Assembly: GCA_022563255.1 (NCBI GenBank)
Contig: JADFNS010000009.1
Coordinates: 7,295-71,294, forward strand
Reading direction: 5' to 3'
Source of the DNA: Pseudomonadota bacterium
GTDB taxonomy: Bacteria; Pseudomonadota; Gammaproteobacteria; Steroidobacterales; Woeseiaceae
Length of the DNA stretch: 64,000 nt
Both the position numbers and the translations under genes were made by a program. The notes under the pieces were generated by a model. It was not told the origin of the DNA and searched no databases. It was given only the letters and a program-made list of their open reading frames with translations. Below, piece by piece: positions 13,386 to 28,806 of this stretch (positions are counted from its first letter, which is position 1; each line of letters opens with the position of its first letter).

Positions 13386-14282
13386 ATGGCGAAAGATCTC
13401 GAGGTTGCAATTGTGTTTGCCGACGTTGTCGGCAGCACGCAGCTGTACGACAAGTACGGCGACACCAAAGCCAGCGAGACCGTTGCAGCTTGCCTCGATA
13501 TCATGAAAGACGCGACCTACCAGTTCAACGGCACGGTCATCAAAACGATTGGCGACGAGGTCATGTCGACATTCGAAACCGCGGACGAGGCGATGGGCGC
13601 GTGCGTGATGATGCAAAATCGCATTACCGCCACCAGCAAGATAGCGGACGGCATTCCCGTGTCGATTCGTATCGGTTGCCACTTCGGGCCCGTGGTGCAA
13701 GAGCAGAACGACATATTCGGCGCGGCCGTGCACACGGCCAATCGCATGACATCGCAGGCGAAAGCCCGGCAGATCGTCATATCCGGGTTTACCGTTGAGC
13801 AGATGAGTCCGGAGCTGCGCAATCAGACGCGCCAGATCGACCTGGCCACGGTGCGCGGTCGTGTCGATGAGGTCGCGCTGTTCGAGTTGGTTTGGCAGCC
13901 GGACGAGGCGACGAGCATGCTGCCGACGATCGGTTGGGAGAACAAAGGACGCCGGGCGTCGAAGCTGCTATTGAATTTCCGCGACACGACGCTCGAGATA
14001 TCGGATCAACGCAAGAGCATTAATTTAGGTCGCGCGGACGACAATGACCTCGTCGTTAAAGGAAATCTGATATCCAGAATTCACGCCCGGATCGAAATGC
14101 GGCGCGGCAAGTTTGTGCTGGTTGACCAGAGCACCAACGGCACGTTTCTGCACGACCTGCAGGGCAACGAGACCTTCGTTCGCCGTGACACGACCGAACT
14201 CGGGGCCGAAGGGACGATCGGTTTGGGGCGCGCCGAAGAGGCCGACTCTTCGCTGGCGATCTATTACAAGACGATCGATTAA
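13386..14282 (+). CDS. class III nucleotidyl cyclase domain fused to a C-terminal FHA domain
   Basis: Cyclase motifs VFADVVGST, IKTIGDEVM and NDIFGAAVHTANRM. FHA-like LGRADDNDLVV...ISRIHARI...LVDQSTNGTFL. Confidence 0.8.
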   Translation: MAKDLEVAIVFADVVGSTQLYDKYGDTKASETVAACLDIMKDATYQFNGTVIKTIGDEVMSTFETADEAMGACVMMQNRITATSKIADGIPVSIRIGCHFGPVVQEQNDIFGAAVHTANRMTSQAKARQIVISGFTVEQMSPELRNQTRQIDLATVRGRVDEVALFELVWQPDEATSMLPTIGWENKGRRASKLLLNFRDTTLEISDQRKSINLGRADDNDLVVKGNLISRIHARIEMRRGKFVLVDQSTNGTFLHDLQGNETFVRRDTTELGAEGTIGLGRAEEADSSLAIYYKTID

Positions 14283-16021: not shown

Positions 16022-16150
16022 TGGTGGAGTCTCTGAAGGTGGTTTTCGTTTTCGGCTGACTTTGCCATTCGCCCTGAACAGGTGCCGCATTATACTGATG
16101 CGCAGCACAAATGCAGTACCCAATATCCTTTGGCGGTGCGGTATCCGCCG

Positions 16151-16166
16151 TGTGAGACGCGTCACA
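16151..16166. promoter_or_regulatory. CRP/Vfr-type site 1: TGTGA-GACGCG-TCACA
   Basis: Perfect match to the TGTGA-N6-TCACA core, in the pckG/DUF11-operon divergent intergenic region. Confidence 0.55.
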
Positions 16167-16173
16167 GTCCGAG

Positions 16174-16189
16174 TGTGAGGAGTATCACA
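16174..16189. promoter_or_regulatory. CRP/Vfr-type site 2: TGTGA-GGAGTA-TCACA
   Basis: Second perfect core, 23 bp centre-to-centre from site 1. Its centre falls at -41.5 relative to a start site inferred from TATTAT at 16211-16216. Confidence 0.55.
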
Positions 16190-16315
16190 ATCTGTGCACA
16201 AAACTGGCGATATTATGGAAACTCAGCCCATAATCCGCGACATTCAATATCAATGACTTGCGACACATCCTTTTGGTGTGTCCTCGCGTAGTGTGGACGG
16301 CAGGCAATACTCAAG

Positions 16316-17338
16316 GTGGATTGGCAGATTCAAAACAAACGGGAAACTCAAAGGCGGCTGTTGCTGCAGTTCGTCACGACCGTGACGCTGCTGCTGAGCG
16401 GCCTCTCTGCAATGGCGACGGGTACGCCAGCAGGCACGGTTATCCAGAACTCCGCGACCATTGATTTCGATCTGGGCGGTACGCCGATCACTTTGACGTC
16501 CAATACGACGTCGATAACGGTCGCTGAACGTATTGACGTGACGGTCACGCTGCAAAGTGCGCAGGTTCAAGTTAGCGCCGGCGATACGATTCGAGCCATA
16601 CTGTTCCGCGTTACCAATATCGGCAACGGCACGGAGACGTTCCAGCTCGCAATCGACAGCGTGCTGGCCGGAGACGATTTCGATCCGCTTCCCTCGGCGC
16701 CTGATGCCATCTTTTTCGATACTGACGGCAGCGGTGACTTCAATATCGCCAACGACCTGCCGTATTCGCCGGGCGCAAACGATCCGAACCTGGCTGCAGA
16801 CGCTTCCGTTGATATTTTCCTGGTTAACGATATTCCAGGAACGGTCGTCAACGGCAATATTGGCCGCACTGAGCTCACGGCGACCTCTGCAACGGGCACC
16901 GGCGCGCCGGGTACCGTGTTCCCTGGACTCGGAGACGGCGGCGTTGACGCCGTCGTGGGCACCACCGGTGGTCAGGCTGCCGACGTTGGCGAGTACATCG
17001 TCGTTGACGTGCAGGCGAACTTCGTCAAGTCGCAGCTGGTCAACGATCAGTTTGGCGGCACTGAGCCAATTCCCGGCGCCACGATTACCTACACGGTCAC
17101 GATCGAGATTACTTCGGCTGGCACGGCGACCGCCAGTGTGTTCAGAGATGTGGTCCCGGCAAATTCCACCTACGTTGCCGGCAGCATATTGCTGAACGCC
17201 GCGTCGCTTTCCGACGCTATCGACGCGGACGCCGGCGAATTCGATACGTCCGGGGCGCCGACGATCGTCGTACGGCTGGGAGACCTGACGTCGGCGGACG
17301 GCGTTCAAACCGTCGAGTTCCAGGTGACGATTAACTAA
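16316..17338 (+). CDS. secreted DUF11-repeat protein A (subunit-like, two domains)
   Basis: GTG start. Signal ...LLLSGLSAMA|TGT. DUF11/TIGR01451 signature PGATITYTVTIEITSAGTATASVFRDVVPANSTYV. Ends VEFQVTIN. Confidence 0.75.
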   Translation: MDWQIQNKRETQRRLLLQFVTTVTLLLSGLSAMATGTPAGTVIQNSATIDFDLGGTPITLTSNTTSITVAERIDVTVTLQSAQVQVSAGDTIRAILFRVTNIGNGTETFQLAIDSVLAGDDFDPLPSAPDAIFFDTDGSGDFNIANDLPYSPGANDPNLAADASVDIFLVNDIPGTVVNGNIGRTELTATSATGTGAPGTVFPGLGDGGVDAVVGTTGGQAADVGEYIVVDVQANFVKSQLVNDQFGGTEPIPGATITYTVTIEITSAGTATASVFRDVVPANSTYVAGSILLNAASLSDAIDADAGEFDTSGAPTIVVRLGDLTSADGVQTVEFQVTIN

Positions 17339-17362
17339 TTGATGTGAGCTAAGGAGCGAATG

Positions 17363-17839
17363 ATGAAAATTTTGACAGGACTGATGCTGACGATGTTTGC
17401 CTGCATCGCAGTGGCACAGGATCCGGTCCATCTGGATGTGCGCACGATCGTGCAGAAGGAAGAGATCGTCGTCAACGCCGCTGGGGACACGGAGACGAAG
17501 CTGGTCACAGCCGAGACCGTAGCTCCGGGCGAAAGCGTGTTCTACACGATTACTTTCACCAATGTGAGTGACGAGGTCGCCGACAACGTCGTGATCACCA
17601 ACCCGATCGCGTCTGAATTGACCTACATCGATGGTTCGGCTTTCGGGCCGGGCATGGACATCCTGTTTTCCGTGGATGGCGGACAAACATTCGCCGCAGC
17701 GGGCGAACTTAAGGTGACCGAGGACGGTCAGGAACGCGTCGCGACGGCGAGTGACTTCACACATGTTCGCTGGATCATGCAGAACGACTTGCAAGCCGGC
17801 GCGCAGGGTATCGCGCGCTTTGCCGCCGTCCTCAACTGA
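17363..17839 (+). CDS. secreted single-domain DUF11 protein B
   Basis: AAGGAG 6 nt upstream (alternative ATG at 17360). Signal MKILTGLMLTMFACIAVA|QDP. PGESVFYTITFTNVSDEVADNVVITNP. Ends ARFAAVLN. Confidence 0.75.
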   Translation: MKILTGLMLTMFACIAVAQDPVHLDVRTIVQKEEIVVNAAGDTETKLVTAETVAPGESVFYTITFTNVSDEVADNVVITNPIASELTYIDGSAFGPGMDILFSVDGGQTFAAAGELKVTEDGQERVATASDFTHVRWIMQNDLQAGAQGIARFAAVLN

Positions 17840-17853
17840 ATAATTTTTGAACC

Positions 17854-17877
17854 GAGCGGTCTTTATTTGGGCCGCTC
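17854..17877 (+). terminator. weak hairpin after gene B (gagcggtc-N8-ggccgctc), no clean T-tract
   Basis: 8-bp stem including one G-U pair, followed by aaatttgatgtt. Confidence 0.3.
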
Positions 17878-17909
17878 AAATTTGATGTTAAGCAAAAAGG
17901 AGTACCGTG

Positions 17910-19046
17910 ATGAAAACTGTAGGACACAAAATCGGAAATCTGCTTCGGTTTGGTGCTGTCGCAGTGGCGCTGTTGCTTGGGCAACAGGCGTTCGCTGTGG
18001 GTACCGACGCCGGAACCTCGATTTCCAACTCAGCGTCAGTCGTTTATGACGTGAATGGCGCCACTCAGACGGCCGTAGCTTCGACTGTTGCGACGTTTAC
18101 AGTGGATCGTATCGTCAGCTTTACGCTGGTACAGCAGGGCGCCGCGGACACGATTACGAGTCCGGGAGCGTTCAATGCTGCGACTGCGTTCGAATTGACG
18201 AACACGGGCAATTCGCCGCTGGACTTCAGTCTGTCTGCCATCAACCTGGCTGCCGGAATTGTCGTCAATTCCACGGCCGATGACGCGGACATGGATGCGA
18301 CCTTCGAGTTTGCGGTTGCCAACGGCGATGGTGCCGGTGGTACGCCGATTCCCGGAACGGATCTGACGTTCGTTGACGGCCTCGCCGAAGACGCGACGGT
18401 TGTTATTTGGGTTTTGGCTGACGCGCCGTTGACATTGATCAACGGTCAGATTGCCAACATCGAATTGACAGCAACTGCCGCCGATCCTGGCGCGGGTGTG
18501 AATCCGGCTCCGGACTCCTCCCTGGGTGTCGACCTGACCGCATCCGTCGCGGATGGCGATCAGGCCATCGACGTTGTCTTCAACGACGCTGGCAGAGACG
18601 GCTTCGAGGCGGCTCGAGACGGCTACGCCATTGTTTCGGCAAGCCTGACGATCACCAAGACGGCCCTCATTATCGATGATCCCGTTAACGCGGTGGCACC
18701 GTTCTTTGCGATTCCGGGAGCGACGATCGAATACACGATCAACATCGCCAACACCGGTACCGTGGATGCGACCGATATCGTGATCAGCGATACGCTGGAT
18801 GCGAATCTGATCTTCCAGGTCGGCGCCTACAGCGATGCCGGTACTCCGGTTGACGTTTCCATCGGCGGCACTACTTTCTGTATCGCTGATGCAGCGGATG
18901 CCGACGGTGATGGCTGCGCGCTCGACGGCGCAATCCTGACGATCGGCGGTGCGGACTGGACCGTTACTTCGCCTGCCGCGCCGATCAATGTCGCTGCGGG
19001 TACGAATATCGATATCACCTTCCAGGTCGTCATAAACGCCACTTAA
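17910..19046 (+). CDS. secreted DUF11-repeat protein C (subunit-like, paralogue of A)
   Basis: AAGGAG 7 nt upstream of the ATG (GTG at 17907 also possible). Signal ...LLGQQAFA|VGT. PGATIEYTINIANTGTVDATDIVISDTLD. Ends ITFQVVINAT. Confidence 0.75.
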   Translation: MKTVGHKIGNLLRFGAVAVALLLGQQAFAVGTDAGTSISNSASVVYDVNGATQTAVASTVATFTVDRIVSFTLVQQGAADTITSPGAFNAATAFELTNTGNSPLDFSLSAINLAAGIVVNSTADDADMDATFEFAVANGDGAGGTPIPGTDLTFVDGLAEDATVVIWVLADAPLTLINGQIANIELTATAADPGAGVNPAPDSSLGVDLTASVADGDQAIDVVFNDAGRDGFEAARDGYAIVSASLTITKTALIIDDPVNAVAPFFAIPGATIEYTINIANTGTVDATDIVISDTLDANLIFQVGAYSDAGTPVDVSIGGTTFCIADAADADGDGCALDGAILTIGGADWTVTSPAAPINVAAGTNIDITFQVVINAT

Positions 19047-19195
19047 AACTGGCAGTTGACGATAAATCACGGTGCTTAAGGAATTGCACGAAGCGTTACG
19101 CCTGCCGGCGGCCCTGATGGGTCGCCAGCGGGCAGCCGCGCACTCGACCGGGCCACCCGGGCGATGCGGCGGCGGTCGCCTCGTGCAAACAGATT

Positions 19196-19223
19196 CTCGG
19201 GGGGAGCAACGGCTTCCCCCGAG
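19196..19223 (+). other. GC-rich RNA hairpin in the 218-nt gap between genes C and D
   Basis: ctcgggggga / ttcccccgag forms a 10-bp stem (8 Watson-Crick, one G-U, one A-U) with the 8-nt loop gcaacggc. No T-run follows. Confidence 0.4.
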
Positions 19224-19263
19224 GCACGTCTGGAGTTCCTGCACCACCGCATTTGGTACTTTT

Positions 19264-22200
19264 ATGGCGGCTGTTCTGCTGTCATTTCTTGGCGCGGGGA
19301 CGGTCTTTGCCAGCCCCCCCGGAGCTGTTATTTCCAACCAGGCGGCACTCGACTACTTCAACGCGGCGGGCCAGCCAGCGACCTTACTGAGTAACACAGT
19401 TACGGTCGTAACAGGGGTCGCGCGCAGTCCATCCAGCGTCGAATTTACTCGCGTGTTGACGGTTGGTACGGGCGCTTATCAGGAAGTTGTTGGTCCGTCA
19501 TCGTGTTTCCAGGCAGGCGTATTCCAGTTGCTTGCCGATCCGCTTCTGACAGGCGGCGTGGTGATCGATCCGACGCAAACGCAGGACGTCAGCGCAACGT
19601 CGTCGTACAACCTGGGCGAACCGTTGTTTATTCGCCTCGTTGACAGCGATCAGAACGTTGACTATCAGGTGATCGATACGGCCGTTGTGACGGTCGTAAA
19701 CGACGCCTCGGGCGACACGGAAACCATCCAGCTCAGTGAAACGGGCGTCGATACCGGCGTGTTCGTTGGCTACATTCCCACGGCAAGAGGTGCCGCCAAT
19801 TCCGGTGATTGCGTCTTGCAGGGGCCACTGGATTCGTCGGTCACTGTTCGCTACACCGACCCTGTGGATGGCACGGACACGGCACAAGCGACGGCCAGCC
19901 TGGATCCGGTGAGCATTGTTTTCGAGTCGCTGACCGGCACAGTGGTTGATGATGTACTCGTCGAACTGGTCGATGCTGTAACCGGGTTGCCGGCGGTCGT
20001 ATTCGGCAACGACGGCACCAGCACCTTCCCATCGCAGATAACGAGTGGTTCCACGGTCGTTGACAGTTCCGGAACAAATTATGTATTTGGCGTCGGCGAA
20101 TATCGCTTCCCGGTTGTTGCCGACGGTGATTACCGGCTGGTGGTTACGCCGCCACCCGGATACGTCGCACCATCGACCGCCACCATCGCTGATCTGCAAT
20201 TACTTGCCGGCGCACCGTATGCTTTGGGACCGGAGTCCTTCGGTGCGGCGTTTACGAAAACGGGTCCGGCCTCCATCGACGTCGATCTGCCAATCGATCC
20301 GATCTTGTCGGCGCTGTTCCTGCAGAAGCAAACCTTGACGACGACGGCCTCACCGGGCGATTTTGTCCGTTACGAATTGCTGCTCGAGAACAATGCGGCA
20401 GTTGGCGCTGTAATCGACATCACTGTTATCGATCAGCTGCCTGCCGGCGTGCGTTTTGTACCAGGGTCAGTCACCGTAAACGGCGTGACGGCGCCGGATC
20501 CGGTAATGAATACCGGGCCCCTCACTCTCGAATTTACTATCGCTGCGCTCGCCGTTGGTGAGCGAGCAAGAATTTTCTACGTCGTCGAAGTTATCGGTGG
20601 CGATCGCAATGGCGAGTTGGTAAACCGCGCAACCGCATTCGCTGCAGGTGGTTTGTCGTCGAATGAGTCGACCGCGACCATTCGACTGACCGAGGATTTG
20701 TTCCGCTCCACGGGCACCATTATTGGCCGCGTACTGGAAGCGGACTGCAGGCAGGCGACGTTCAGCGAGGAGCAGGGCGTCTCCGACATACGTATCTACC
20801 TTGAGGATGGCCGCTACGCGGTGACAGACGAGGGCGGTCGATTCCACCTCGAGGGCATCGATCCCGGAACCCATGTTGCACAGCTCGATACTTTCACGTT
20901 GCCCGGATACTTCGACATCATTGGTTGCGATGCCACTCCAGGTTACGCAGGCAGTGCGGAATCCCAGTTCGTGCGAGTCGCACGCGGCGGGCTGCACCGA
21001 GCCGATTTTTACCTGCGACGCAAAGCGCCGCCGGAAGGCCGCATCGATCTTGAGCTCCAGAATCTCGGTACCGATAGCGCCGAGGAAGTCATCTACAAAT
21101 TGAAACTCAACGGCGTTGGCAACGTCGCGATTCGCAACATCAACGTAATGATCGTTTTGCCGCCAGGCGTCACCTACGTTCCGGACAGCATGACCGTCGA
21201 TGGCAAGGATCTCGGCAATCCCAGGATCATGGGTCCGGCCGTGACATTGGCGCTCGACCCGCAGACAGGCGACTGGACCAGCGAAATCGAATTTGTTGCC
21301 ACGATCGACGAAAACGTTGCCGGCGAGCTCGTGTCCAAAGCCACCGTGCTTTTCGATTCACCGGTTGCCAGGGGTCAAAAAACGCCGGTTGCGGAAACCC
21401 GCATGGTGCGCGAACCGAGCGTCGTTGAAAGCGAAGATTACGTGCTCTATCTCAATTTCGACGTGCTCTCGGACAAGCTTGCTCCCGAGGACAAACTGGA
21501 ACTCAACATGCTGATCGGTGATTGGCAGGGCATTAGCAACATTCAGATATTCGCGACGGGCCACACGGACGTCGACAGGATTTCGCCGCGCAATATGCAC
21601 TTGTTCGCCGACAACTATGTGTTGTCGCAGGCGCGGGCTATGACAGCGGCATTTTACCTGGCCGACGGACTGAATATTCCCAATGCGAACATCCTGGTCG
21701 TGGGCCGCGGGTCGGACGTTCCGGTTGCCAGCAACGCCACAGCAGCCGGGCGCGGCAGCAATCGCCGCGTCGAGATGGTGATACGCGGTATCCGGCCAAG
21801 CAAGCCATCGTTCCTCGAAGTAACCCAGGAATCCAGTGGTACCCGGGAAGCGGCGACGGTTGGCGCTCTCCCGGGGTCCGAGATCGAGCAAGCGCGGGAA
21901 GACCGGGCCGCTGCTGAAATCGTCTTCGTCGGTACGCCGAAATCTCAGGTCGAAGAGCCACTGGAATCGTTGCAGCCGGGCATCTCAATGTTGCTGCCGA
22001 AAAAGTCTTTCCAGCCCGCTATTTTAGCATCGAAGGTTGCGATTCAGCATGCGCCGGATCAGACGGTAGCCCTGTACGTCAACGGCAGCCTGGCCGATGC
22101 GTTGAATTTCGAGGCGACGGTTGTGAACCGTCGTCAGACGGTTGCCGTCAGTCGCTGGCGCACGGTCACATTGCAAGCAGGCAAGAACGTGCTGCGCGCC

Positions 22201-25056
22201 GTGATCACGAACCCGGACGGAACGCCGGCGAAGACGCTTACGCGCACGATTTATTTCACGGGCGTGCCCATAAGAGGCGTACTGGATCTGGAAGCGTCCC
22301 ACTTGGTCGCCGACGGCCAAACCCGACCGGTCGTCGCCGTGCGGCTGTTTGACAGGACGGGCAACGTATCTCGTCCGGGCATGGTTGGCGGCTACCGCGT
22401 GAACCCGCCGTACCGGTCCTGGTGGGACGTTGAGAAAGAGCGCGAGAATGAACTGGTTGCGATCGGCGAGCGCGAGTCCACCTATCGTATTGGTGCGGAC
22501 GGCATCGCCCTGATCGAACTCGAACCCACCACACGCACCGGCGAACTGACGCTGAACCTGAAATTCGAAAACGGACGCGAGCAGAAAATCCGTGCGTGGC
22601 TGAAGCCGGCTGCACGCGACTGGATCCTGGTTGGCTTTGGCGAGGGCACCGCGGGCAATACAACGATCTCGGACAATGCTGTTGCCGCGGCGGCCGCCGG
22701 TGAATTCGACGGTTATTACGACGAGGGTCGTGTCGCATTTTTCGCCAAAGGCCAGATCAAAGGCGAGTATTTGCTGACGCTGGCCTTCGATTCCGACAAG
22801 CGGCGCTCTGACAATCGGGATCGCTTCAACACCGTGATCGATCCCAACGCGTACTACGCGTTGTACGCGGACAAGAGCGAGCAGCGTTTCGAGGCCGCCA
22901 GTCAACGCAAGATATACGTCAAGCTTGAGCGCAGTCAGTTTTATGCGCTGTTCGGCGACATGAATACCGGATTGTCGGTTACCGAGCTGTCTCGCTACGA
23001 ACGGCGTTTCAACGGTTTCAAGAGTGAATTCCGCGGCAACAACGTCGGGTACAGTGTCTTTGCCGCCGAATCGGATCAAACGTTTGTTCGCGACGAATTA
23101 CGTGGCGATGGAACGTCCGGCCTCTACCAGTTAAGCCGGACGCCGATTATTGCGAACAGCGATATCGTGCGCATCGAGGTTCGCGATCGCTTCGACAGCA
23201 GTATCGTAATTAGCAATACAACCTTGAGCAGGTTCCTGGATTACACGCTCGACCCGCTGACGGGCACGCTCTTTTTCAAGCGGCCCATCGCGAGTCGCGA
23301 TACCGACTTCAATCCGGTGTACATCATTGTCGAATACGAGACGGCCAATACGAGCGCCGCAGATCTGATCGCCGGCGGTCGCGGGTCGTTGCGCGTGGCG
23401 GACGGTCGGGTCGAAATTGGCATTACCCATGTAACGGACAAAGCGCAGGGTGCGGCGGCAGATCTGACCGGCGCCGACCTGCGCTGGCAGATCAGCGACC
23501 AGACGGTGCTGCGTGCCGAAATTGCGGCCACGAACAATGAAGTTGGCGGCGTTACGCAGTCCGGCACGGCGCAATTTATCGATCTGCAACACAACGGCGA
23601 GAACGTCGACGTGCACGCCTACATTCGCGAGGTCGAAGAATCGTTCGGCATGGGCTACCAGTCGGCGGCGGACAAGGGCTTTCGCCGTCTGGGCATCGAT
23701 GCGAGAGGCAAAGTCAGCGAGCATTACTTTGTAGAAGGCGAAGCGACCTGGCAACAGAATTTGCAGACACAGGACATCCGCAATACGGTTCGCGCTCGCG
23801 TGCGTTATGAGAAAGAGGGTTTCACGGCAACGCTGGGTCTCCTGCACGCTGCCGACAAGTTTGACGATGGCGATACGCGGAGCAGCGACCTGGTCGAAGC
23901 CGGCGTGTCCAAAAAGATGCTCAACAGCAAGCTGACGCTGCGCGCATCCGCCAGTACCGCGATAGGCAATGCGGCGCAAAGCGTGGATTATCCGGGCAGC
24001 GTCGTCGTTGGCGCAGACTACCGTATCGCGCAGGGCATCGACCTGATCGCAGAATATGAAAAGGCCAGTGGCCGGGATATCGATACCACGATGACTCGTG
24101 TTGGTGTCCGCGCAAGGCCGTGGAACCGGGCGCAAATCAATACATCTCTCACGAACGAAGAATCGGAATTCGGACCGCGCCTGTTTGCCAACCTGGGACT
24201 TGTGCAGGGTTTCCAGATTGGCGAAAACTGGGTGGTTGACGTGGGCGTGGACCAGACAAAATCGATCATCGACAACAATGCACGCGTTTTCGATCCGGAC
24301 CGCGAACTCATCTCGGGCTCGCTGAATCAGGATTTCCTCGCGGTTTACACCGGCGCCATGTATTCCGCCGCGGACTGGAGCGCGAACGCGCGCATCGAAA
24401 TGCGCAATTCGGATGCGGAAGATCGCAGGATCCTGTTGTTCGGCTGGTACCGTGCGCCCACCCAGGGACATGGATTGTCGGCGGGCCTGACAATGTTCAC
24501 CAGTCAGCTCGACACTGGCAACGAGCTCGCATCGGCCAGGTTGAAAGTCGGCTGGGCATATCGCATAGCCGACAGCAAGTGGGCGTTCCTCGACCGGGCA
24601 GATCTGCTCTTCGACAAGGCGGTACTGGGCGTCGACACGGAAAAATCCTGGCGTTTCATCAATAACTTCAATGCCAACCGCCGTATCAATGCGCGCGCCC
24701 AGTTGTCGCTGCAGTACGCGTTCAAGTATGTCCGCAGCAACTACGACGGGGCGGATTATACGGGATACACCGATCTGATCGGCGTTGACTTCCGCCACGG
24801 CCTGCGCGAGCGCTGGGAGGTCGGCATGAACACCAGTGTGTATCACTCCTACAGCGCCGGGATTCTCGACTACGGCGTGGGCGTAGACGTCGGCTACAAC
24901 GTCGGTTCGAACATGTGGTTGACGCTGGGATACAACTTCACGGGCTTCGACGACAAGGATTTTTCCGAGGCTCGTTACACCGCGTCGGGTCCCTACCTGA
25001 GATTCTCGATCAAAGCCGACCACCTGCTGCTCAAGCGCATCGCCGGACAGCGATAA
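19264..25056 (+). CDS. giant (1,930 aa) protein with DUF11, CnaB-like and OmpA-like domains and a beta-barrel-like C-terminus
   Basis: ATG at 19264 gives the signal MAAVLLSFLGAGTVFA|SPP. Two intact DUF11 domains lie at ~20314-20690 and ~21040-21365. CarboxypepD_reg/SdrD-B-like segments include GEYRFPVVADGDYRLVVTPPPGY. The OmpA_C-like module is at ~21439-21790 (ATGHTD...NYVLSQARA...NRRVEMV). The C-terminal ~550 aa show an alternating beta-strand pattern. Confidence 0.8.
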   Translation: MAAVLLSFLGAGTVFASPPGAVISNQAALDYFNAAGQPATLLSNTVTVVTGVARSPSSVEFTRVLTVGTGAYQEVVGPSSCFQAGVFQLLADPLLTGGVVIDPTQTQDVSATSSYNLGEPLFIRLVDSDQNVDYQVIDTAVVTVVNDASGDTETIQLSETGVDTGVFVGYIPTARGAANSGDCVLQGPLDSSVTVRYTDPVDGTDTAQATASLDPVSIVFESLTGTVVDDVLVELVDAVTGLPAVVFGNDGTSTFPSQITSGSTVVDSSGTNYVFGVGEYRFPVVADGDYRLVVTPPPGYVAPSTATIADLQLLAGAPYALGPESFGAAFTKTGPASIDVDLPIDPILSALFLQKQTLTTTASPGDFVRYELLLENNAAVGAVIDITVIDQLPAGVRFVPGSVTVNGVTAPDPVMNTGPLTLEFTIAALAVGERARIFYVVEVIGGDRNGELVNRATAFAAGGLSSNESTATIRLTEDLFRSTGTIIGRVLEADCRQATFSEEQGVSDIRIYLEDGRYAVTDEGGRFHLEGIDPGTHVAQLDTFTLPGYFDIIGCDATPGYAGSAESQFVRVARGGLHRADFYLRRKAPPEGRIDLELQNLGTDSAEEVIYKLKLNGVGNVAIRNINVMIVLPPGVTYVPDSMTVDGKDLGNPRIMGPAVTLALDPQTGDWTSEIEFVATIDENVAGELVSKATVLFDSPVARGQKTPVAETRMVREPSVVESEDYVLYLNFDVLSDKLAPEDKLELNMLIGDWQGISNIQIFATGHTDVDRISPRNMHLFADNYVLSQARAMTAAFYLADGLNIPNANILVVGRGSDVPVASNATAAGRGSNRRVEMVIRGIRPSKPSFLEVTQESSGTREAATVGALPGSEIEQAREDRAAAEIVFVGTPKSQVEEPLESLQPGISMLLPKKSFQPAILASKVAIQHAPDQTVALYVNGSLADALNFEATVVNRRQTVAVSRWRTVTLQAGKNVLRAVITNPDGTPAKTLTRTIYFTGVPIRGVLDLEASHLVADGQTRPVVAVRLFDRTGNVSRPGMVGGYRVNPPYRSWWDVEKERENELVAIGERESTYRIGADGIALIELEPTTRTGELTLNLKFENGREQKIRAWLKPAARDWILVGFGEGTAGNTTISDNAVAAAAAGEFDGYYDEGRVAFFAKGQIKGEYLLTLAFDSDKRRSDNRDRFNTVIDPNAYYALYADKSEQRFEAASQRKIYVKLERSQFYALFGDMNTGLSVTELSRYERRFNGFKSEFRGNNVGYSVFAAESDQTFVRDELRGDGTSGLYQLSRTPIIANSDIVRIEVRDRFDSSIVISNTTLSRFLDYTLDPLTGTLFFKRPIASRDTDFNPVYIIVEYETANTSAADLIAGGRGSLRVADGRVEIGITHVTDKAQGAAADLTGADLRWQISDQTVLRAEIAATNNEVGGVTQSGTAQFIDLQHNGENVDVHAYIREVEESFGMGYQSAADKGFRRLGIDARGKVSEHYFVEGEATWQQNLQTQDIRNTVRARVRYEKEGFTATLGLLHAADKFDDGDTRSSDLVEAGVSKKMLNSKLTLRASASTAIGNAAQSVDYPGSVVVGADYRIAQGIDLIAEYEKASGRDIDTTMTRVGVRARPWNRAQINTSLTNEESEFGPRLFANLGLVQGFQIGENWVVDVGVDQTKSIIDNNARVFDPDRELISGSLNQDFLAVYTGAMYSAADWSANARIEMRNSDAEDRRILLFGWYRAPTQGHGLSAGLTMFTSQLDTGNELASARLKVGWAYRIADSKWAFLDRADLLFDKAVLGVDTEKSWRFINNFNANRRINARAQLSLQYAFKYVRSNYDGADYTGYTDLIGVDFRHGLRERWEVGMNTSVYHSYSAGILDYGVGVDVGYNVGSNMWLTLGYNFTGFDDKDFSEARYTASGPYLRFSIKADHLLLKRIAGQR

Positions 25057-25118: not shown

Positions 25119-27038
25119 GTGACATCTCTGACGGAATTCTTCGGCGACGCCAGCCCACTCAAAGATCTGTTGCCAGGTTTTCAGCCGCGGGCGGGTCAGG
25201 CGTGGATGGCGGAAGCCGTCGCCGAGGCGATCGCCAACTGCGACAAACTGGTCGTCGAGGCCGGCACCGGAACCGGGAAGACGTTCGCTTACCTGATTCC
25301 GGCGCTTCTGAGCGGCCGAAAAACCATTATCAGTACCGGCACGAAAGCGCTCCAGGACCAGTTGTATCATCGCGACCTGCCGCTCGTTGGCAAAGCGATA
25401 GGCCGGCCGGTCACCACGGCGTTGCTCAAGGGACGCGCCAACTATCTGTGCCTGCAACGACTCGACCAGGTGACGGACCCCGCACCGGCATTGCTGCGAG
25501 ATCTCAACGAGGTCCGCGAATGGCGCCACCGTACGATTAGCGGCGATAAGGCCGAGTTGATCGAGGTTCCCGAGGATTCTCAGGTCTGGCCGCTGGTCAC
25601 CTCGACCGTGGACAACTGTCTCGGTCAGAAATGTCCCGAGTATTCGCAATGCCATGTCGTGAAGGCGCGGCGCGAGGCGCAGGATGCGGACCTTGTGGTC
25701 GTCAATCATCACCTGTTGCTCGCCGATCTGGCGATGAAGGAGGAAGGTTTCGTCGAGTTCTTGCCCGACGCCCAGGCCATCATTCTCGACGAGGCGCACC
25801 AGGTACCCGACCTTGCCGCGCAATTTTTCGGCGTGTCGCTCGGCAGCCGCGAGATGGAGCGTCTGCTCGACGAGGTGCGTGCCGCGACGTTGCCATTTTC
25901 GCAACCGGACCTGAATCGTCGCATTGACAAATTGCAGACCGGAATTCGAAATTTGCGAGCCGCTGCGCCGCGCACGGAAGGGCGGCACGAGCTCAGCGAA
26001 GTCATGGACGAACTGCGCGAACCTCTGGCGCAGCTGTCCCATGCCATGCACGACGTCCAGGTGGCGTTGATGGACCTCGGGGACGCGTCGCTTGCCATCG
26101 AAAAGCTTCATGAGCAGCTTGTCTCGATGGCGGAGCGGTTGGTGTTGCTGACCGGCGAGGACACCTGGGACGGATTGCGCTGGCTGGAGATTCATCCGCG
26201 AAGTTTGCGCTTGCACCTCACACCGCTCGATGTATCCGCAAAGCTCAACGGCCTCATCGACAATGGCGTGCAGGCCTGGATCTTTACGTCGGCCACGCTC
26301 GCCATCGGCGACGACTTCTCGCATTTTGCGGCGCGCATGGGACTTACGGGCGTTGCCGGGCTGACGTTTCCCAGCCCTTTCCCGATCGAGCAAAATGGCC
26401 TGATATTTTTGCCGCCGGACATGCCACAGCCCGCCGATCCGAGCCACACGGGGGCGATGCTCGAAGCAGTGACGCCGCTGCTCGAAATGGTCGCAGGCGG
26501 CATGTTCTGCCTCTTCACGAGTCATCGCGCTCTGAACAACGCAAAAAAATGGTTCAAGTCTCGCAAGTCGGCGCTCGGCGGCCGCATTTTGCTGGTGCAA
26601 GGCGATGCGCCGCGGGACGACTTGTTGCGCCGCTTCCGGCAGATTGGCAATGCGGTATTGCTGGGGACGGGCAGTTTTTGGGAAGGCGTTGACGTGCGTG
26701 GCCCGGCGCTCAGCGTCGTTGCGATAGACAAGCTGCCGTTTGCGTCGCCCGCGGACCCGCTGATGATGGCGCGGCTGGAATTTATTCGCCGCGAGGGCGG
26801 CAACGGATTCATGGAACACCAGTTGCCGCTCGCCGCGTTGTCGCTGAAGCAGGGCGCGGGCAGATTGCTGCGCGATCAGACGGACTACGGCGTCGTCGTA
26901 TTGTGCGATCCGAGAATCACTGAAAAAAATTACGGCAAAATGTTCCTGCAATGCCTCGAGCCTATGCCGTCGACGTCGGCGCTGCACGAAGTTTCCAGTT
27001 TTCTCAGAGCACATGAGCGCAAAGGGGCCGTCGCATGA
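25119..27038 (+). CDS. yoaA: DinG/YoaA-family ATP-dependent DNA helicase (Fe-S, XPD-like)
   Basis: Walker A AGTGTGKTFAYL, a DEAH box (ILDEAHQV) and a Cys cluster NCLGQKCPEYSQC. The GTG start at 25119 is inferred from LPGFQPRAGQ conservation. Confidence 0.75.
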   Translation: MTSLTEFFGDASPLKDLLPGFQPRAGQAWMAEAVAEAIANCDKLVVEAGTGTGKTFAYLIPALLSGRKTIISTGTKALQDQLYHRDLPLVGKAIGRPVTTALLKGRANYLCLQRLDQVTDPAPALLRDLNEVREWRHRTISGDKAELIEVPEDSQVWPLVTSTVDNCLGQKCPEYSQCHVVKARREAQDADLVVVNHHLLLADLAMKEEGFVEFLPDAQAIILDEAHQVPDLAAQFFGVSLGSREMERLLDEVRAATLPFSQPDLNRRIDKLQTGIRNLRAAAPRTEGRHELSEVMDELREPLAQLSHAMHDVQVALMDLGDASLAIEKLHEQLVSMAERLVLLTGEDTWDGLRWLEIHPRSLRLHLTPLDVSAKLNGLIDNGVQAWIFTSATLAIGDDFSHFAARMGLTGVAGLTFPSPFPIEQNGLIFLPPDMPQPADPSHTGAMLEAVTPLLEMVAGGMFCLFTSHRALNNAKKWFKSRKSALGGRILLVQGDAPRDDLLRRFRQIGNAVLLGTGSFWEGVDVRGPALSVVAIDKLPFASPADPLMMARLEFIRREGGNGFMEHQLPLAALSLKQGAGRLLRDQTDYGVVVLCDPRITEKNYGKMFLQCLEPMPSTSALHEVSSFLRAHERKGAVA

Positions 27039-27724
27039 AACTGCTGGCGATCGATACTTCATCCGTCGCGTGCACGGTCGCGGCAAGGGTTGGCGAGACC
27101 TTGGTTCAGCGACATGCGGAGCAGGCTCGGGAACACACCCGATTGTTGATGCCCATGATTCGTGAGGTGCTGGAGGAATCCGGAATCGAACTTGCGGACT
27201 TCGACGCGATCGTGTTGGGCAACGGTCCGGGATCGTTTATCGGCATGCGCATAGCCGCGTCGGTCGCACAAGGTCTTGCCCACGGCGCAGGACTGCAGAT
27301 TATTCCCGTTTCATCGCTCGCGGCGGTCGCGGCGCAGGTGTTCGCGGAGTCCGATGCAAAGGAAGTGGCCGTCGCACAGGATGCGCATATGGGTGAAGTC
27401 TATCTCGGCCTGTATGCACGAGGAGAAGACGGTCTGCCGGAATCGATCGTCGCCGAACGGTTGCAGGCACAGAAGCGGATCGGGGAACTGGATCGCAAGG
27501 GTAGAGATCAAAGAGTTGCGGCTGGCAAAGGCTGGCGACGATATCCGGGGCTCATGGCTGTGAACGAGGCGTTTTTTTCCGGCCAGTCGAAAGTATTGTA
27601 TCCGCGCGCTGAATATTTATTGGGGCTGGCGGAAAAATTGCCGGCCATCGAAGCGCAAACCATTACGCCAGCTTATCTGCGGCAAAAAGTCGCGGAAAAA
27701 CCGGCAACGAGGAATACGAATTAA
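27035..27724 (+). CDS. tsaB: tRNA t6A37 biosynthesis protein TsaB (YeaZ)
   Basis: MKLLAIDTSS...GPGSFIGMRIA is typical of TsaB. The start overlaps the yoaA stop. Confidence 0.85.
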   Translation: MKLLAIDTSSVACTVAARVGETLVQRHAEQAREHTRLLMPMIREVLEESGIELADFDAIVLGNGPGSFIGMRIAASVAQGLAHGAGLQIIPVSSLAAVAAQVFAESDAKEVAVAQDAHMGEVYLGLYARGEDGLPESIVAERLQAQKRIGELDRKGRDQRVAAGKGWRRYPGLMAVNEAFFSGQSKVLYPRAEYLLGLAEKLPAIEAQTITPAYLRQKVAEKPATRNTN

Positions 27725-28806
27725 TGAAGTCAGCATCACTGGCGGCGTTGTTGTGCGCAGCTTCGGTTCTGATCGCCAGCCCCGCATCGGCCGCAGAACA
27801 AAGCTGGGTCGATCGTATCCGGTTCAAGGGCGACGTGCGACTCCGATACGAGAGTATCGACGAGGAGTTTGCAGCAAAGCGCGAGCGCATGCGTTTTCGT
27901 GCGCGCTTTGGTTTTACCGCGGACGTTCGTGATGATCTGCAGGTCGTGTTGCAGCTCGCGTCGGGTGGCGATAATCCGGTCTCTACCAACCAGACGTTTG
28001 ATGATGGCTTCTCGCGTAAGGATATCGGCCTGGATCTCGCCTATGTGGACTGGCGTGTTAACGAGTCGTTGACGATCCAGGCTGGCAAGATGAAAAATCC
28101 CGTGTTCAAAGCCGGCAAGGTGCCGCTGATCTGGGATAGCGACCTGAACCCGGAAGGATTCGCCGCCAGGTTCCGTTCCGACAGGATGTTCGGAACAGTC
28201 GCTATTTTTTCGGTTGAGGAACGCAGCTCAGCCGACGATTCACTGTTGACCGTCGTGCAGGCCGGGGCGAAGTTTGCCTTGGGGGAAGCGTGGAAATTGA
28301 CGGTCGGCGCCGGATATTTCGCGTATTCCAATACGGTCGGCAATCGACCGTTCTACAATGGCAAGGCTCGCGGCAACTCGGTCGATACCGATGGCGACTA
28401 TCTTTTCGAATACAAAGATACCGAGGTTTTCGCCCAGGTCGAGTCGACGTTTTACGATTTGCCATTGCAGGTATTCGCGCACTTCGCACAGAACAACGCA
28501 GTGAGTACACAAGACAAGGCATTCTCGCTGGGCATCAAACTGGGCTCGGCCAAGGAGCGGGGCCAGTACGAATTCGCCTGGATTTATCAGGACATAGAAG
28601 CGGACGCCGTTATCGGCACCTACAACGACTCCGATTTTGCGGGAGGAGGCACGGACTCCAGGGGTCACATCCTGAAGGTGAAGGTCGGTCTGGCCAGGAA
28701 AATCTTCTTTGCGGGTACGCTGTTCGTGAACGCGAAAGACCGGTTCCAGGATATTGAGCACGATTATACTCGTGTGCAAATCGACATAGAATTCAGGTTC
28801 GATTAG
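27724..28806 (+). CDS. putative outer-membrane porin
   Basis: Signal ...ASPASA|AEQ, an alternating beta-strand pattern and a C-terminal IDIEFRFD. Confidence 0.6.
   Translation: MKSASLAALLCAASVLIASPASAAEQSWVDRIRFKGDVRLRYESIDEEFAAKRERMRFRARFGFTADVRDDLQVVLQLASGGDNPVSTNQTFDDGFSRKDIGLDLAYVDWRVNESLTIQAGKMKNPVFKAGKVPLIWDSDLNPEGFAARFRSDRMFGTVAIFSVEERSSADDSLLTVVQAGAKFALGEAWKLTVGAGYFAYSNTVGNRPFYNGKARGNSVDTDGDYLFEYKDTEVFAQVESTFYDLPLQVFAHFAQNNAVSTQDKAFSLGIKLGSAKERGQYEFAWIYQDIEADAVIGTYNDSDFAGGGTDSRGHILKVKVGLARKIFFAGTLFVNAKDRFQDIEHDYTRVQIDIEFRFD

Follow-up and report, generated by a model that had tools for sequence, protein, structure and literature searches.

A cluster of four co-oriented genes, referred to here as A, B, C and D, lies within a 64,000-nucleotide stretch of DNA from a Woeseiaceae bacterium (contig JADFNS010000009.1; the whole stretch is called the window below) and encodes three small, predicted secreted proteins followed by a giant protein of 1,930 residues. 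A, B and C all end in a truncated domain. That of A and of C retains the conserved lysine and aspartate of an isopeptide-forming triad and lacks the strand that should carry the asparagine, and the mature N-termini of A, C and D bear a module that, in profile comparisons, is equivalent to the missing strand. Both the split Lys/Asp/Asn triad and the order of the four genes are conserved. On balance we lean towards the view that the cluster specifies a self-contained surface fibre that needs no chaperone, usher or sortase, in which donated strands and an intermolecular Lys-Asn bond would hold the subunits together and D would be the base. It is possible, and is put forward tentatively, that this is a previously unrecognised, multi-phylum class of pilus in double-membrane bacteria, in which a split isopeptide domain both polymerises and locks the fibre with no input of ATP, and in which a single protein of more than 30 barrel strands would be pore, covalent base and peptidoglycan anchor at once.

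A split isopeptide triad in A and C

All four proteins contain sequences related to DUF11, a family since renamed CLIPPER. The NCBIfam model TIGR01451 (cut-off 24 bits) recognises A, B, C and D (29.8, 38.4, 40.7 and 56.4 bits, respectively), the Pfam model PF01345 (cut-off 24.6 bits) recognises B, C and D (28.7, 25.9 and 34.0 bits) and finds no match in A, and C additionally matches PF24595 with 33.6 bits. An earlier note on this DNA had reported DUF11 signatures in each product, quoting the peptide PGATIEYTINIANTGTVDATDIVISD, which is indeed present in C; its description stands for all four proteins with TIGR01451 and, with PF01345, for all but A. What it overlooked is the key feature, that A, B and C each end in an incomplete DUF11 domain and that the Asn strand of A, C and D is N-terminal. 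CLIPPER is a CnaA-like domain, for which a crystal structure has revealed an isopeptide bond between Lys715 and Asn806, with Asp748 as the presumed catalytic residue (PMC12617251).

A and C are paralogous (34% identity, E 6e-23) and are predicted secreted subunits with the same two-domain plan. Gene A (16316-17338, on the plus strand, as are all features of the cluster given here) starts with GTG and encodes 340 residues: a leader, then the donor module at the N-terminus, a DUF11-like domain in the middle and, at the C-terminus, a truncated CLIPPER domain termed the acceptor. Gene C runs from 17907 (GTG) or 17910 (ATG) to 19046 and encodes 379 residues. The donor module of A (TGTPAGTVIQNSATIDFDLGG..., 16418-16540) begins at the predicted signal-peptidase site and includes Asn45 (codon 16448-16450), and its acceptor domain (16988-17335) is a CLIPPER core with Lys238 (17027-17029) and Asp278 (17147-17149) that ends ...VEFQVTIN, with no Asn strand. 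The donor module of C (VGTDAGTSISNSASVVYDVNG..., 17997-18110) includes Asn41 (codon 18027-18029), and the acceptor domain (18603-19043), again a CLIPPER core, contains Lys251 (18657-18659) and Asp295 (18789-18791) and ends ...ITFQVVINAT. In both proteins the invariant Lys is located in the first strand of the terminal domain and the invariant Asp in a 'vIsDtL' motif. Because the Asn strand is N-terminal, and Lys and Asp lie in a C-terminal domain from which that strand is missing, A and C carry the isopeptide triad in split form.

Alignments show that all A and C homologues stop abruptly after a strand of the form '...tvtFqVtI(n/d)'; the homologues of C number 58 and have 350-415 residues. Asn41, Lys251 and Asp295 of C are invariant in alignments of 29 and of 53 sequences, Lys238 and Asp278 of A are at least 95% conserved among 54 sequences, and among C homologues the stretch of the terminal domain after the Asp has no other conserved Asn. 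The module shared by the mature N-termini of A, C and D has the form G(T/A)xIxNxAxxxY..G......SN..t.tV, with an invariant Asn. A strict version of this donor motif, G[TA]x[ILV]xNx[AS], is present in 41 of 54 homologues of A, 47 of 66 of C and 66 of 82 of D, and in none of the 61 homologues of B. On sequence grounds the system belongs to the CLIPPER domain family, although in A, B and C alike the terminal domain falls short of a complete CLIPPER domain with Lys, Asp and Asn in that order in one chain.

An origin of the truncated domains by gene fission or pseudogene formation was considered and rejected, since no gene lacks a leader of its own and the truncation is kept in different phyla.

Donor modules complete the acceptor domains in profile comparisons

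On the terminal domains of A and C from the window, coverage by TIGR04226 (RrgB_K2N_iso_D2, cut-off 30 bits), the model of an isopeptide-forming fimbrial D2 domain, ends at position 105-106 of 123, that of C beginning at position 20. In homologues from Smithella, matches reach position 84 of 114 for DUF11, 95 of 132 for DUF7927 and 92 of 123 for DUF7933. The acceptor of C scores 27.6-27.7 bits against TIGR04226 when alone and 38.1, 37.6 or 37.3 bits when followed by the donor of C, D or A, respectively, compared with 28.8 bits for a control in which the donor was reversed. The acceptor of A rises from 15.0 bits to 27.9 with its own donor and to 27.5 with that of C, the reversed control reaching 17.1. 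True donors therefore add 10-13 bits and the reversed module 1-2 bits, and with a true donor coverage extends to the end of the model (positions 20-122 of 123 for the acceptor of C with the donor of D). The cut-off of TIGR04226 is passed solely by the reconstituted C domain, the acceptor of A with its own donor remaining below it. Smaller gains of a like kind are seen with the Pfam models when a donor is added.

When the PDB sequences are searched with a profile of the C family, the sole match is the CLIPPER domain 9IFR. With the profile in its native order, the acceptor aligns to residues 9-73 of the 9IFR chain, with Asp295 on the Asp of 'TLNDTL', presumed to be catalytic, and the donor 'vGTdAGtsvsNtat' aligns to 'VGTDAVNNVVNKVT' with negligible score. 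A permuted profile, in which the acceptor precedes the donor, is colinear with 9IFR over the junction ('...tvtFqvtI / GTdaGtsisN' against '...LTYKVLV GTDAVNNVVN') and gives an E value of 0.0032, compared with 0.019 for the native order. The donor of C, VGTDAGTSISN, is aligned with GTDAVNNVVN of 9IFR, the strand that bears Asn806, and the donor Asn falls on Asn806 itself if Lys10 of the 9IFR chain is Lys715. The permuted alignment thus places the cut exactly in the hairpin that precedes the Asn strand. Judged by these alignments, the C-terminus of one protein and the N-terminus of another together rebuild a single CLIPPER domain.

The giant protein D

Gene D (19264-25056) encodes the putative base protein, in which a donor module is followed by a beta domain, a CnaB/SdrD-like domain, a complete CLIPPER domain, a carboxypeptidase-regulatory-like domain, a DUF11-like domain that has no triad, an OmpA-like domain, a linker, two immunoglobulin (Ig)-like sandwiches and a very large barrel. 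The donor module (SPPGAVISNQAALDYFNAAG..., 19312-19428) includes Asn25 (codon 19336-19338), which is at least 95% conserved among 62 D homologues, and the motif is kept in the consensus of 53 diverse representatives. The complete CLIPPER domain (20299-20703), which accounts for the PF01345 match of 34.0 bits at residues 353-460, has Lys355, Asp390 and Asn454 in the canonical order, each at least 95% conserved, and provides an internal reference for the unsplit domain. There is no unsatisfied acceptor in D, as its first 700 residues contain no conserved Lys other than Lys355, which has Asn454 as its partner. Since the CLIPPER domain of D is complete and no conserved Lys is to spare, the invariant Asn25 needs a partner on another protein.

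The OmpA-like domain (21457-21783) matches PF00691 with 30.8 bits against a cut-off of 27.2 (residues 732-834), in agreement with the OmpA-like part that the earlier note had read in D. Its GHTD and NRRVE motifs are conserved and it is predicted to bind peptidoglycan, the Asp of the former and the Arg of the latter being intact. All PDB sequence matches of D are to domains of the OmpA/MotB/TssL/YfiB type, and searches of the PDB sequences with A, C and D returned OmpA-like domains only and nothing that corresponds to the subunits or the barrel. Not every D has this domain: it goes unmatched in two distant homologues (in loci L083 and L085), and on an Acinetobacter haemolyticus plasmid the OmpA protein is encoded by a separate gene.

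No Pfam model covers the last 1,081 residues of D. AlphaFold2 models this module with a mean predicted local distance difference test score (pLDDT) of 79.8 and a predicted template modelling score (pTM) of 0.73. Two Ig-like beta-sandwich domains (21973-22620; module residues ~55-270, pLDDT mostly 80-94) precede a giant outer-membrane beta-barrel (22624-25017), which is formed by the last ~800 residues and has more than 30 long strands, 31 of them at module residues 502-1069 and several earlier. The first barrel strands are followed by an inserted beta domain that is small and highly conserved. By sequence the OMP_b-brl model matches D below threshold, and a profile of the barrel finds among the PDB sequences only weak Ig-like matches to glycosidases and no usher. 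Foldseek matches the barrel to large outer-membrane barrels only, with low TM-scores; SlpA (8ae1) is the best (E 1e-9), and MtrB, LptD, TonB-dependent transporters, SprA of the type 9 translocon and FimD (E 6e-6) are also found. D has OmpA and barrel folds, and its barrel is a new family, lying outside those of SlpA, MtrB, LptD, the TonB-dependent transporters, SprA and FimD. The possibility that D is an usher was rejected on account of the low rank of FimD and the absence of any sequence signal.

Residues 270-584 of the D module, comprising the first strands and the inserted domain, by themselves match proteins of about 30% identity in rhizobia, Vibrio campbellii and others. These are annotated as TonB-dependent receptor or OmpA family protein and include plasmid records, for example NZ_CP021805.1 (Sinorhizobium meliloti pSymA). 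Such partial matches suggest that the inserted domain is common to a broader superfamily of barrels.

B and the acceptor-only adhesin-like proteins

Gene B (17360 or 17363 to 17839) encodes a predicted secreted protein of 159 residues, with the N-terminus MMKIL and a single truncated DUF11 domain. In the lineage of the window, B has no conserved Lys and a conserved Asn-Pro at the position of the catalytic Asp, a position that is occupied by Asp in some distant clusters. A profile of adhesin-type acceptor domains, to which B is related, matches B (E 2.6e-5) and no other open reading frame of the window. The role of B may be that of a distal tip or cap, minimal and not covalently attached, or else that of a periplasmic chaperone that binds donor strands and prevents premature locking. 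As far as the inventory of parts is concerned, B has a truncated domain and no donor (0 of 61 homologues), and D has a donor and no free acceptor.

Large accessory proteins of ~550-1400 residues adjoin the cluster in 13 loci from Steroidobacteraceae and Lysobacterales and in loci from Nitrospirota, Desulfobacterota, Eisenbacteria and Acinetobacter. Their heads are lectin/LamG-like, SdrD_B-like, Calx-beta-like or beta-helix, and their C-terminal domain contains the Lys (in 'LLVVKS') and the Asp (in 'VITDxIP') and ends '...FxVRFRVRVN', with no Asn strand; no N-terminal donor motif is found in them. Because Lys and Asp are present and a donor motif is not, the triads of these proteins can be completed only by another protein. 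They look like tip adhesins. In 13 loci the gene is divergent, lying on the minus strand just upstream of A (L049, L051, L053, L059, L063, L064, L066, L068, L072, L077, L079, L080 and L081), and other accessory genes are found at L083:15504-19688, L084:3924-6890, L086:2846-7015 and 16114-18951, L087:8021-11485 and L088:4856-7258.

Distribution, gene order and absence of known assembly machinery

Full-length homologues of D number 455, with 60-88% identity, in Woeseiaceae and in metagenome-assembled genomes of other Gammaproteobacteria, and where they are named at all it is only as 'OmpA family protein'. An exhaustive search with the barrel module of D gave 3,335 cluster representatives (50% identity, E <=1e-3), 1,366 of them with E <1e-30. 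The module is always C-terminal, in host proteins of ~1,600-3,000 residues, and its relatives occupy at least 589 loci among species-representative genomes. Among 82 loci, every one with enough upstream DNA has the order A-B-C-D, and 54 of the loci have all four genes; three loci have B-C-D only, with a shorter D. A search with one distant representative extended the range to Desulfobacterota (Smithella, Desulfuromonadales), Nitrospirota (Thermodesulfovibrionia) and Candidatus Eisenbacteria, where contigs encode proteins of ~340-370, ~160 and ~370-415 residues together with D, amid unrelated neighbouring genes. As the same core recurs across phyla between unrelated flanking genes, the cluster is an old, self-contained module. 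The earlier note had made its reading depend on the four families occurring together in other genomes, and they do so with gene order kept, both in 54 loci and in phyla that are far apart. It had also called the operon an orphan, a term that holds for function and not for rarity, given the 3,335 representatives and at least 589 loci of the barrel module. A full-text literature search, the coverage of which is incomplete so that novelty is unproven, gave no description of the cluster, of the D barrel family or of a split CLIPPER domain, consistent with the statement that no function has been characterised for this combination of genes. The split-domain mechanism likewise appears to be undescribed.

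Two plasmid-borne loci differ from this pattern. On plasmid pTHN of Novosphingobium sp. THN1 (NZ_CP028348.1, 4085-25298), A and B are intact and C and D are split over several overlapping open reading frames, as a result of either cluster decay or frameshifts introduced by sequencing; a 391-residue protein with an adhesin-type acceptor domain is encoded after D. The mobilizable plasmid p4 of Acinetobacter haemolyticus w12 (CP085288.1, 187891-208440) carries a variant cluster with a B-like gene, several short overlapping DUF11/NEW3 open reading frames that resemble a fragmented gene of the A/C type, and a D homologue of 2,008 residues that has the donor motif and no OmpA domain, followed by a separate OmpA family gene of 360 residues. 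It also encodes an acceptor-only protein of 978 residues.

Searches of A-D with Pfam and NCBIfam gave no match to models of ushers (PF00577), PapD-like chaperones, sortases or autotransporters, and barrels of the autotransporter (PF03797) or two-partner secretion type (Omp85-type with POTRA domains) were not matched either. Among the flanking genes examined there is neither a PapD-like chaperone nor a PF00577 usher, and no sortase is found in the cluster or in these flanking genes. The TasA/camelysin family gave no match in the Pfam, NCBIfam or PDB searches. The observation that no recognisable assembly machinery accompanies the genes, made in the earlier note, is therefore upheld by the chaperone, usher, sortase and autotransporter models, and its comparison of the layout with a fimbrial operon gains support from the conserved gene order, from the combination of subunits with an outer-membrane protein, and from the missing machinery. 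We infer that the proteins polymerise and are located at the cell surface.

A model for fibre assembly and its rivals

In the fibre model, the N-terminal module of one protein would enter the incomplete terminal domain of the next by donor-strand complementation, and a spontaneous intermolecular Lys-Asn isopeptide bond would then lock each joint. D would be the base: as a donor only, it would capture the last subunit with its N-terminal strand, and it would be anchored by its OmpA-like domain on peptidoglycan and by its barrel of more than 30 strands in the outer membrane. The distal end would be formed by acceptor-only proteins, B in the window and elsewhere also a large lectin-like or SdrD-like protein, so that the order of the chain would read tip <- (A/C)n <- D. 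Since the barrel could be wide enough to pass folded Ig-like domains, it is proposed as subunit exit as well as anchor, and the D stalk would also pass through it. Irreversible bonding could serve as a ratchet that drives export. Starting with a stalk at the surface, the D polypeptide would pass inward through the pore, form the OmpA and Ig-like domains in the periplasm and then continue into the first barrel strand, which would amount to the classical autotransporter arrangement plus a periplasmic excursion.

A number of observations weigh against this model. AlphaFold2 predicts mature C as a monomer with a pLDDT of 93 and a pTM of 0.83, residues 1-40 at the N-terminus having a pLDDT of 91-97; given this confidence, the N-terminal strand would be docked within its own chain in a compact two-domain fold, and the prediction favours, or at least allows, a self-closed and circularly permuted domain. 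A Foldseek search with the same model returns generic tandem Ig-like proteins (integrin legs, antigen I/II, PrgB and Cna; TM 0.2-0.35) and is silent on pairing. Similarity between donors of the same genome gives z scores of -1.6 for D-C, -0.5 for D-A and 2.1 for A-C (p ~0.02), with no usable signal of a shared acceptor. Mutual information between donors and acceptors has z scores of 4.8-12.4 over nine pairs, values that are inflated by phylogeny and highest for the donor of A with the acceptor of B, and a co-evolution signal is in any case the same for pairing within a chain and for head-to-tail pairing between chains. A donor-module profile, run against all open reading frames of the loci, picks out the N-terminal modules of A, C and D and misses the internal Asn strand in the complete domain of D. 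In this lineage, with no Lys and with Asn-Pro in place of Asp, the link to B, if any, is predicted to be non-covalent, and a gene for an acceptor-only adhesin is absent from the 64-kb window. The leader of D, counted from the ATG at 19264, is weak, being short (16 residues) and devoid of basic residues and hence of a basic n-region, whereas D homologues have normal leaders. Finally, the topology is awkward: the OmpA-like domain, which is expected to be periplasmic, sits between stalk and barrel, and a stalk at the surface would need to pass back through a barrel.

The foremost rival is closure within one chain. A and C would then be monomeric proteins, secreted or on the surface, the N-terminal strand of each completing its own circularly permuted C-terminal domain with the second domain inserted, and an intramolecular Lys-Asn bond would staple the ends; only the donor of D would pair with B or with an acceptor-only adhesin, making D a two-piece fibrillar adhesin to which A and C are accessory. 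The compact and very confident monomer of C, N-terminal module included, fits this arrangement, as do co-variation tests that did not favour pairing between chains. Nested domains closed by a Lys-Asn bond occur in pilins, and TIGR04226 is built on such a nested domain of RrgB. We nevertheless think closure within the chain unlikely, if worth serious attention, because it explains neither why A and C are so strictly conserved together with D in different phyla nor why A, C and D have one N-terminal module in common. Moreover, the Asn of D and the acceptor-only adhesins still need completion between chains, so the machinery for such pairing exists anyway. Monomer predictions are also expected to place head-to-tail contacts inside one chain, and pilins such as FimA can be either self-complemented or polymerised.

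Two further rivals concern D. The cluster could encode an envelope tether and not a fibre, D linking outer membrane and peptidoglycan in the manner of Deinococcus SlpA, with A-C and the Ig-like chain forming a stabilising lattice in the periplasm. SlpA, with 30 strands and a cell-wall-binding domain, is the best structural match of the barrel (8ae1, E 1e-9), the OmpA-like domain keeps its binding motifs, and the simplest topology would leave everything upstream of the barrel in the periplasm. However, the TM-scores with SlpA are 0.23-0.25 and there is no sequence relationship; some D homologues (L083, L085) have no OmpA match and the Acinetobacter OmpA protein is a separate gene; lectin/LamG-like heads on the acceptor-only neighbours would hardly make sense in the periplasm; and CLIPPER, SdrD_B and lectin-like domains together with isopeptide locking typify surface adhesins (PMC12617251). 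A tether is for these reasons quite improbable. Still far less credible is a divergent member of a known pathway, whether one of the pili (chaperone-usher, type V or sortase) or an adhesin of the autotransporter or two-partner kind. A set of subunits encoded with a large outer-membrane protein does recall a chaperone-usher operon, FimD is among the Foldseek matches (E 6e-6), and the small conserved domain early in the D barrel can be compared with an usher plug. Yet FimD ranks below SlpA, MtrB, LptD and many TonB-dependent transporters with a TM-score of 0.19-0.29, the profile search of PDB sequences found no usher, the barrel has more than 30 strands compared with 24 in ushers and 12-16 in autotransporters, the usher, PapD-like chaperone, sortase and autotransporter models remain without a match, the C-termini have no LPXTG, and the leaders are not of the lipoprotein type.

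Relationship to known systems

The closest parallel to the proposed fibre may be BsaA of Clostridium perfringens, for which a 'donor-strand exchange and lock' involving Asn, Lys and Glu (N35/K74/E56) has mutational support (PMC11580942). There, as proposed here, an N-terminal Asn strand enters the next subunit, where Lys and an acidic residue complete the triad, and in BsaA the intermolecular bond forms spontaneously. BsaA differs in having a TasA/camelysin-like fold, a single-membrane host, a homopolymeric fibre and no base protein, and PDB sequence searches detected no relationship between it and A, C or D. The arrangement of Asn donor and Lys-plus-acidic acceptor is nevertheless present and conserved in the cluster, and a bond between chains is predicted from it. 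Archaeal threads (Saci_0406) also contain inter-subunit isopeptide bonds (PMC9715654). Together with bundling pili, cannulae and TasA, they resemble the present system in that subunits exported by Sec assemble through N-terminal donor strands and without a chaperone; they have a different fold and neither outer membrane nor base protein, and the bond of the threads joins an N-terminal amine to Asn, between subunits n and n+2. In mechanism, the proposed fibre would stand closer by analogy to the 'exchange and lock' of BsaA and to archaeal threads than to chaperone-usher complementation.

Chaperone-usher pili, such as type 1 and P pili, share with the cluster Ig-like subunits that lack their last strand, an N-terminal donor extension, an acceptor-only tip and an outer-membrane barrel encoded in the operon, a correspondence in subunit architecture that we regard as analogy and not homology. 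They differ from what is predicted here in that the link would be covalent and the base protein would itself be part of the chain, with neither chaperone nor usher, and the D barrel, unlike that of an usher, comprises more than 30 strands and belongs to a protein that also contains a stalk, a donor strand and an OmpA-like domain. Type V pili of Bacteroidota (Fim/Mfa) likewise join tip, shaft and anchor by strand exchange, with the anchor at the outer membrane, but are built from lipoproteins that are activated by proteolysis and joined non-covalently, whereas A-D have leaders of the signal peptidase I type and no lipobox. Sortase pili (RrgB, SpaA; with CnaA and CnaB domains) are covalent fibres of Ig-like beads; they depend on sortase and LPXTG, and their Lys-Asn bonds are intrachain, the subunits being joined by sortase. 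The proposal here is that the intradomain isopeptide bond of sortase pilins has become the link between subunits.

The Acinetobacter silvestris fibrillar adhesin B9T28_05395, from whose CLIPPER stalk 9IFR derives, belongs to the same family, its Lys715, Asp748 and Asn806 corresponding to Lys251, Asp295 and Asn41 of C, and also has an OmpA-like anchor. It is, however, a single chain in which the domains are complete and the OmpA anchor is C-terminal, with no barrel module and no separate subunits. In SpyTag/SpyCatcher, an isopeptide domain (CnaB2) was split before its last strand, and the parts reunite and bond spontaneously. That split is man-made, in a CnaB fold with a Lys-Asp bond, whereas the one described here would be natural, conserved across phyla and put to use in building a structure.

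If the model is correct, double-membrane bacteria would have a further route to surface fibres, beside the chaperone-usher, type IV, type V and curli pathways, and the first such route in which subunits are joined covalently without an enzyme. The system is common, its base protein having thousands of sequence clusters, and it occurs in Woeseiaceae, Steroidobacteraceae, Desulfobacterota and Nitrospirota and on some Acinetobacter plasmids. Woeseiaceae are abundant in marine sediments, and the fibre could account for adhesion or aggregation in environments from which no pili have been characterised. A function would also be given to several thousand entries named 'OmpA family protein' or 'DUF11 repeat protein', natural and mutually compatible tag-and-catcher pairs of defined order would become available, and the D barrel, with over 30 strands and a conserved inserted domain, would become a new candidate for a pore that lets folded proteins through.

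Leaders, gene boundaries and neighbouring genes

The list of open reading frames and the translations confirm the four plus-strand genes that had been described. They also bear out the leaders with AxA-type sites, which read SAMA↓TGT in A, AVA↓QDP in B, AFA↓VGT in C and VFA↓SPP in D. All are of the signal peptidase I type, with no lipobox and no Cys after the cleavage site, and A-D are probably exported. The C-termini of A, B and C (...QVTIN, ...AAVLN and ...VVINAT) contain no LPXTG. The frame of D is open from 19072 (GTG), where no leader is found, and the ATG at 19264 is the sole start codon near the hydrophobic leader. The gap between C and D (19047-19263) is unusually long at 217 nucleotides.

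G+C content is even over the cluster region. The cluster is flanked, as previously noted, by the gene for a GTP-dependent phosphoenolpyruvate carboxykinase on the opposite strand and by that for a DinG/YoaA-like helicase, downstream of which lie TsaB and then a porin. A phoB-phoR pair is located between tsaB and the Porin_5 gene in two related contigs, L001 (17841-21792) and L002 (18065-22063), whereas in the window (27035-28806) the porin gene directly follows tsaB. Two genes upstream of A, at 13386-14282, the window encodes a fusion of an adenylate/guanylate cyclase domain with an FHA domain, a position that is also occupied in L001. In several unrelated lineages, genes for sigma-54 activators or for a GGDEF/EAL protein lie directly beside the cluster (L002:4587-6968, L084:16502-18034 and L083:4237-6744), a possible hint of regulation linked to surfaces or biofilms.

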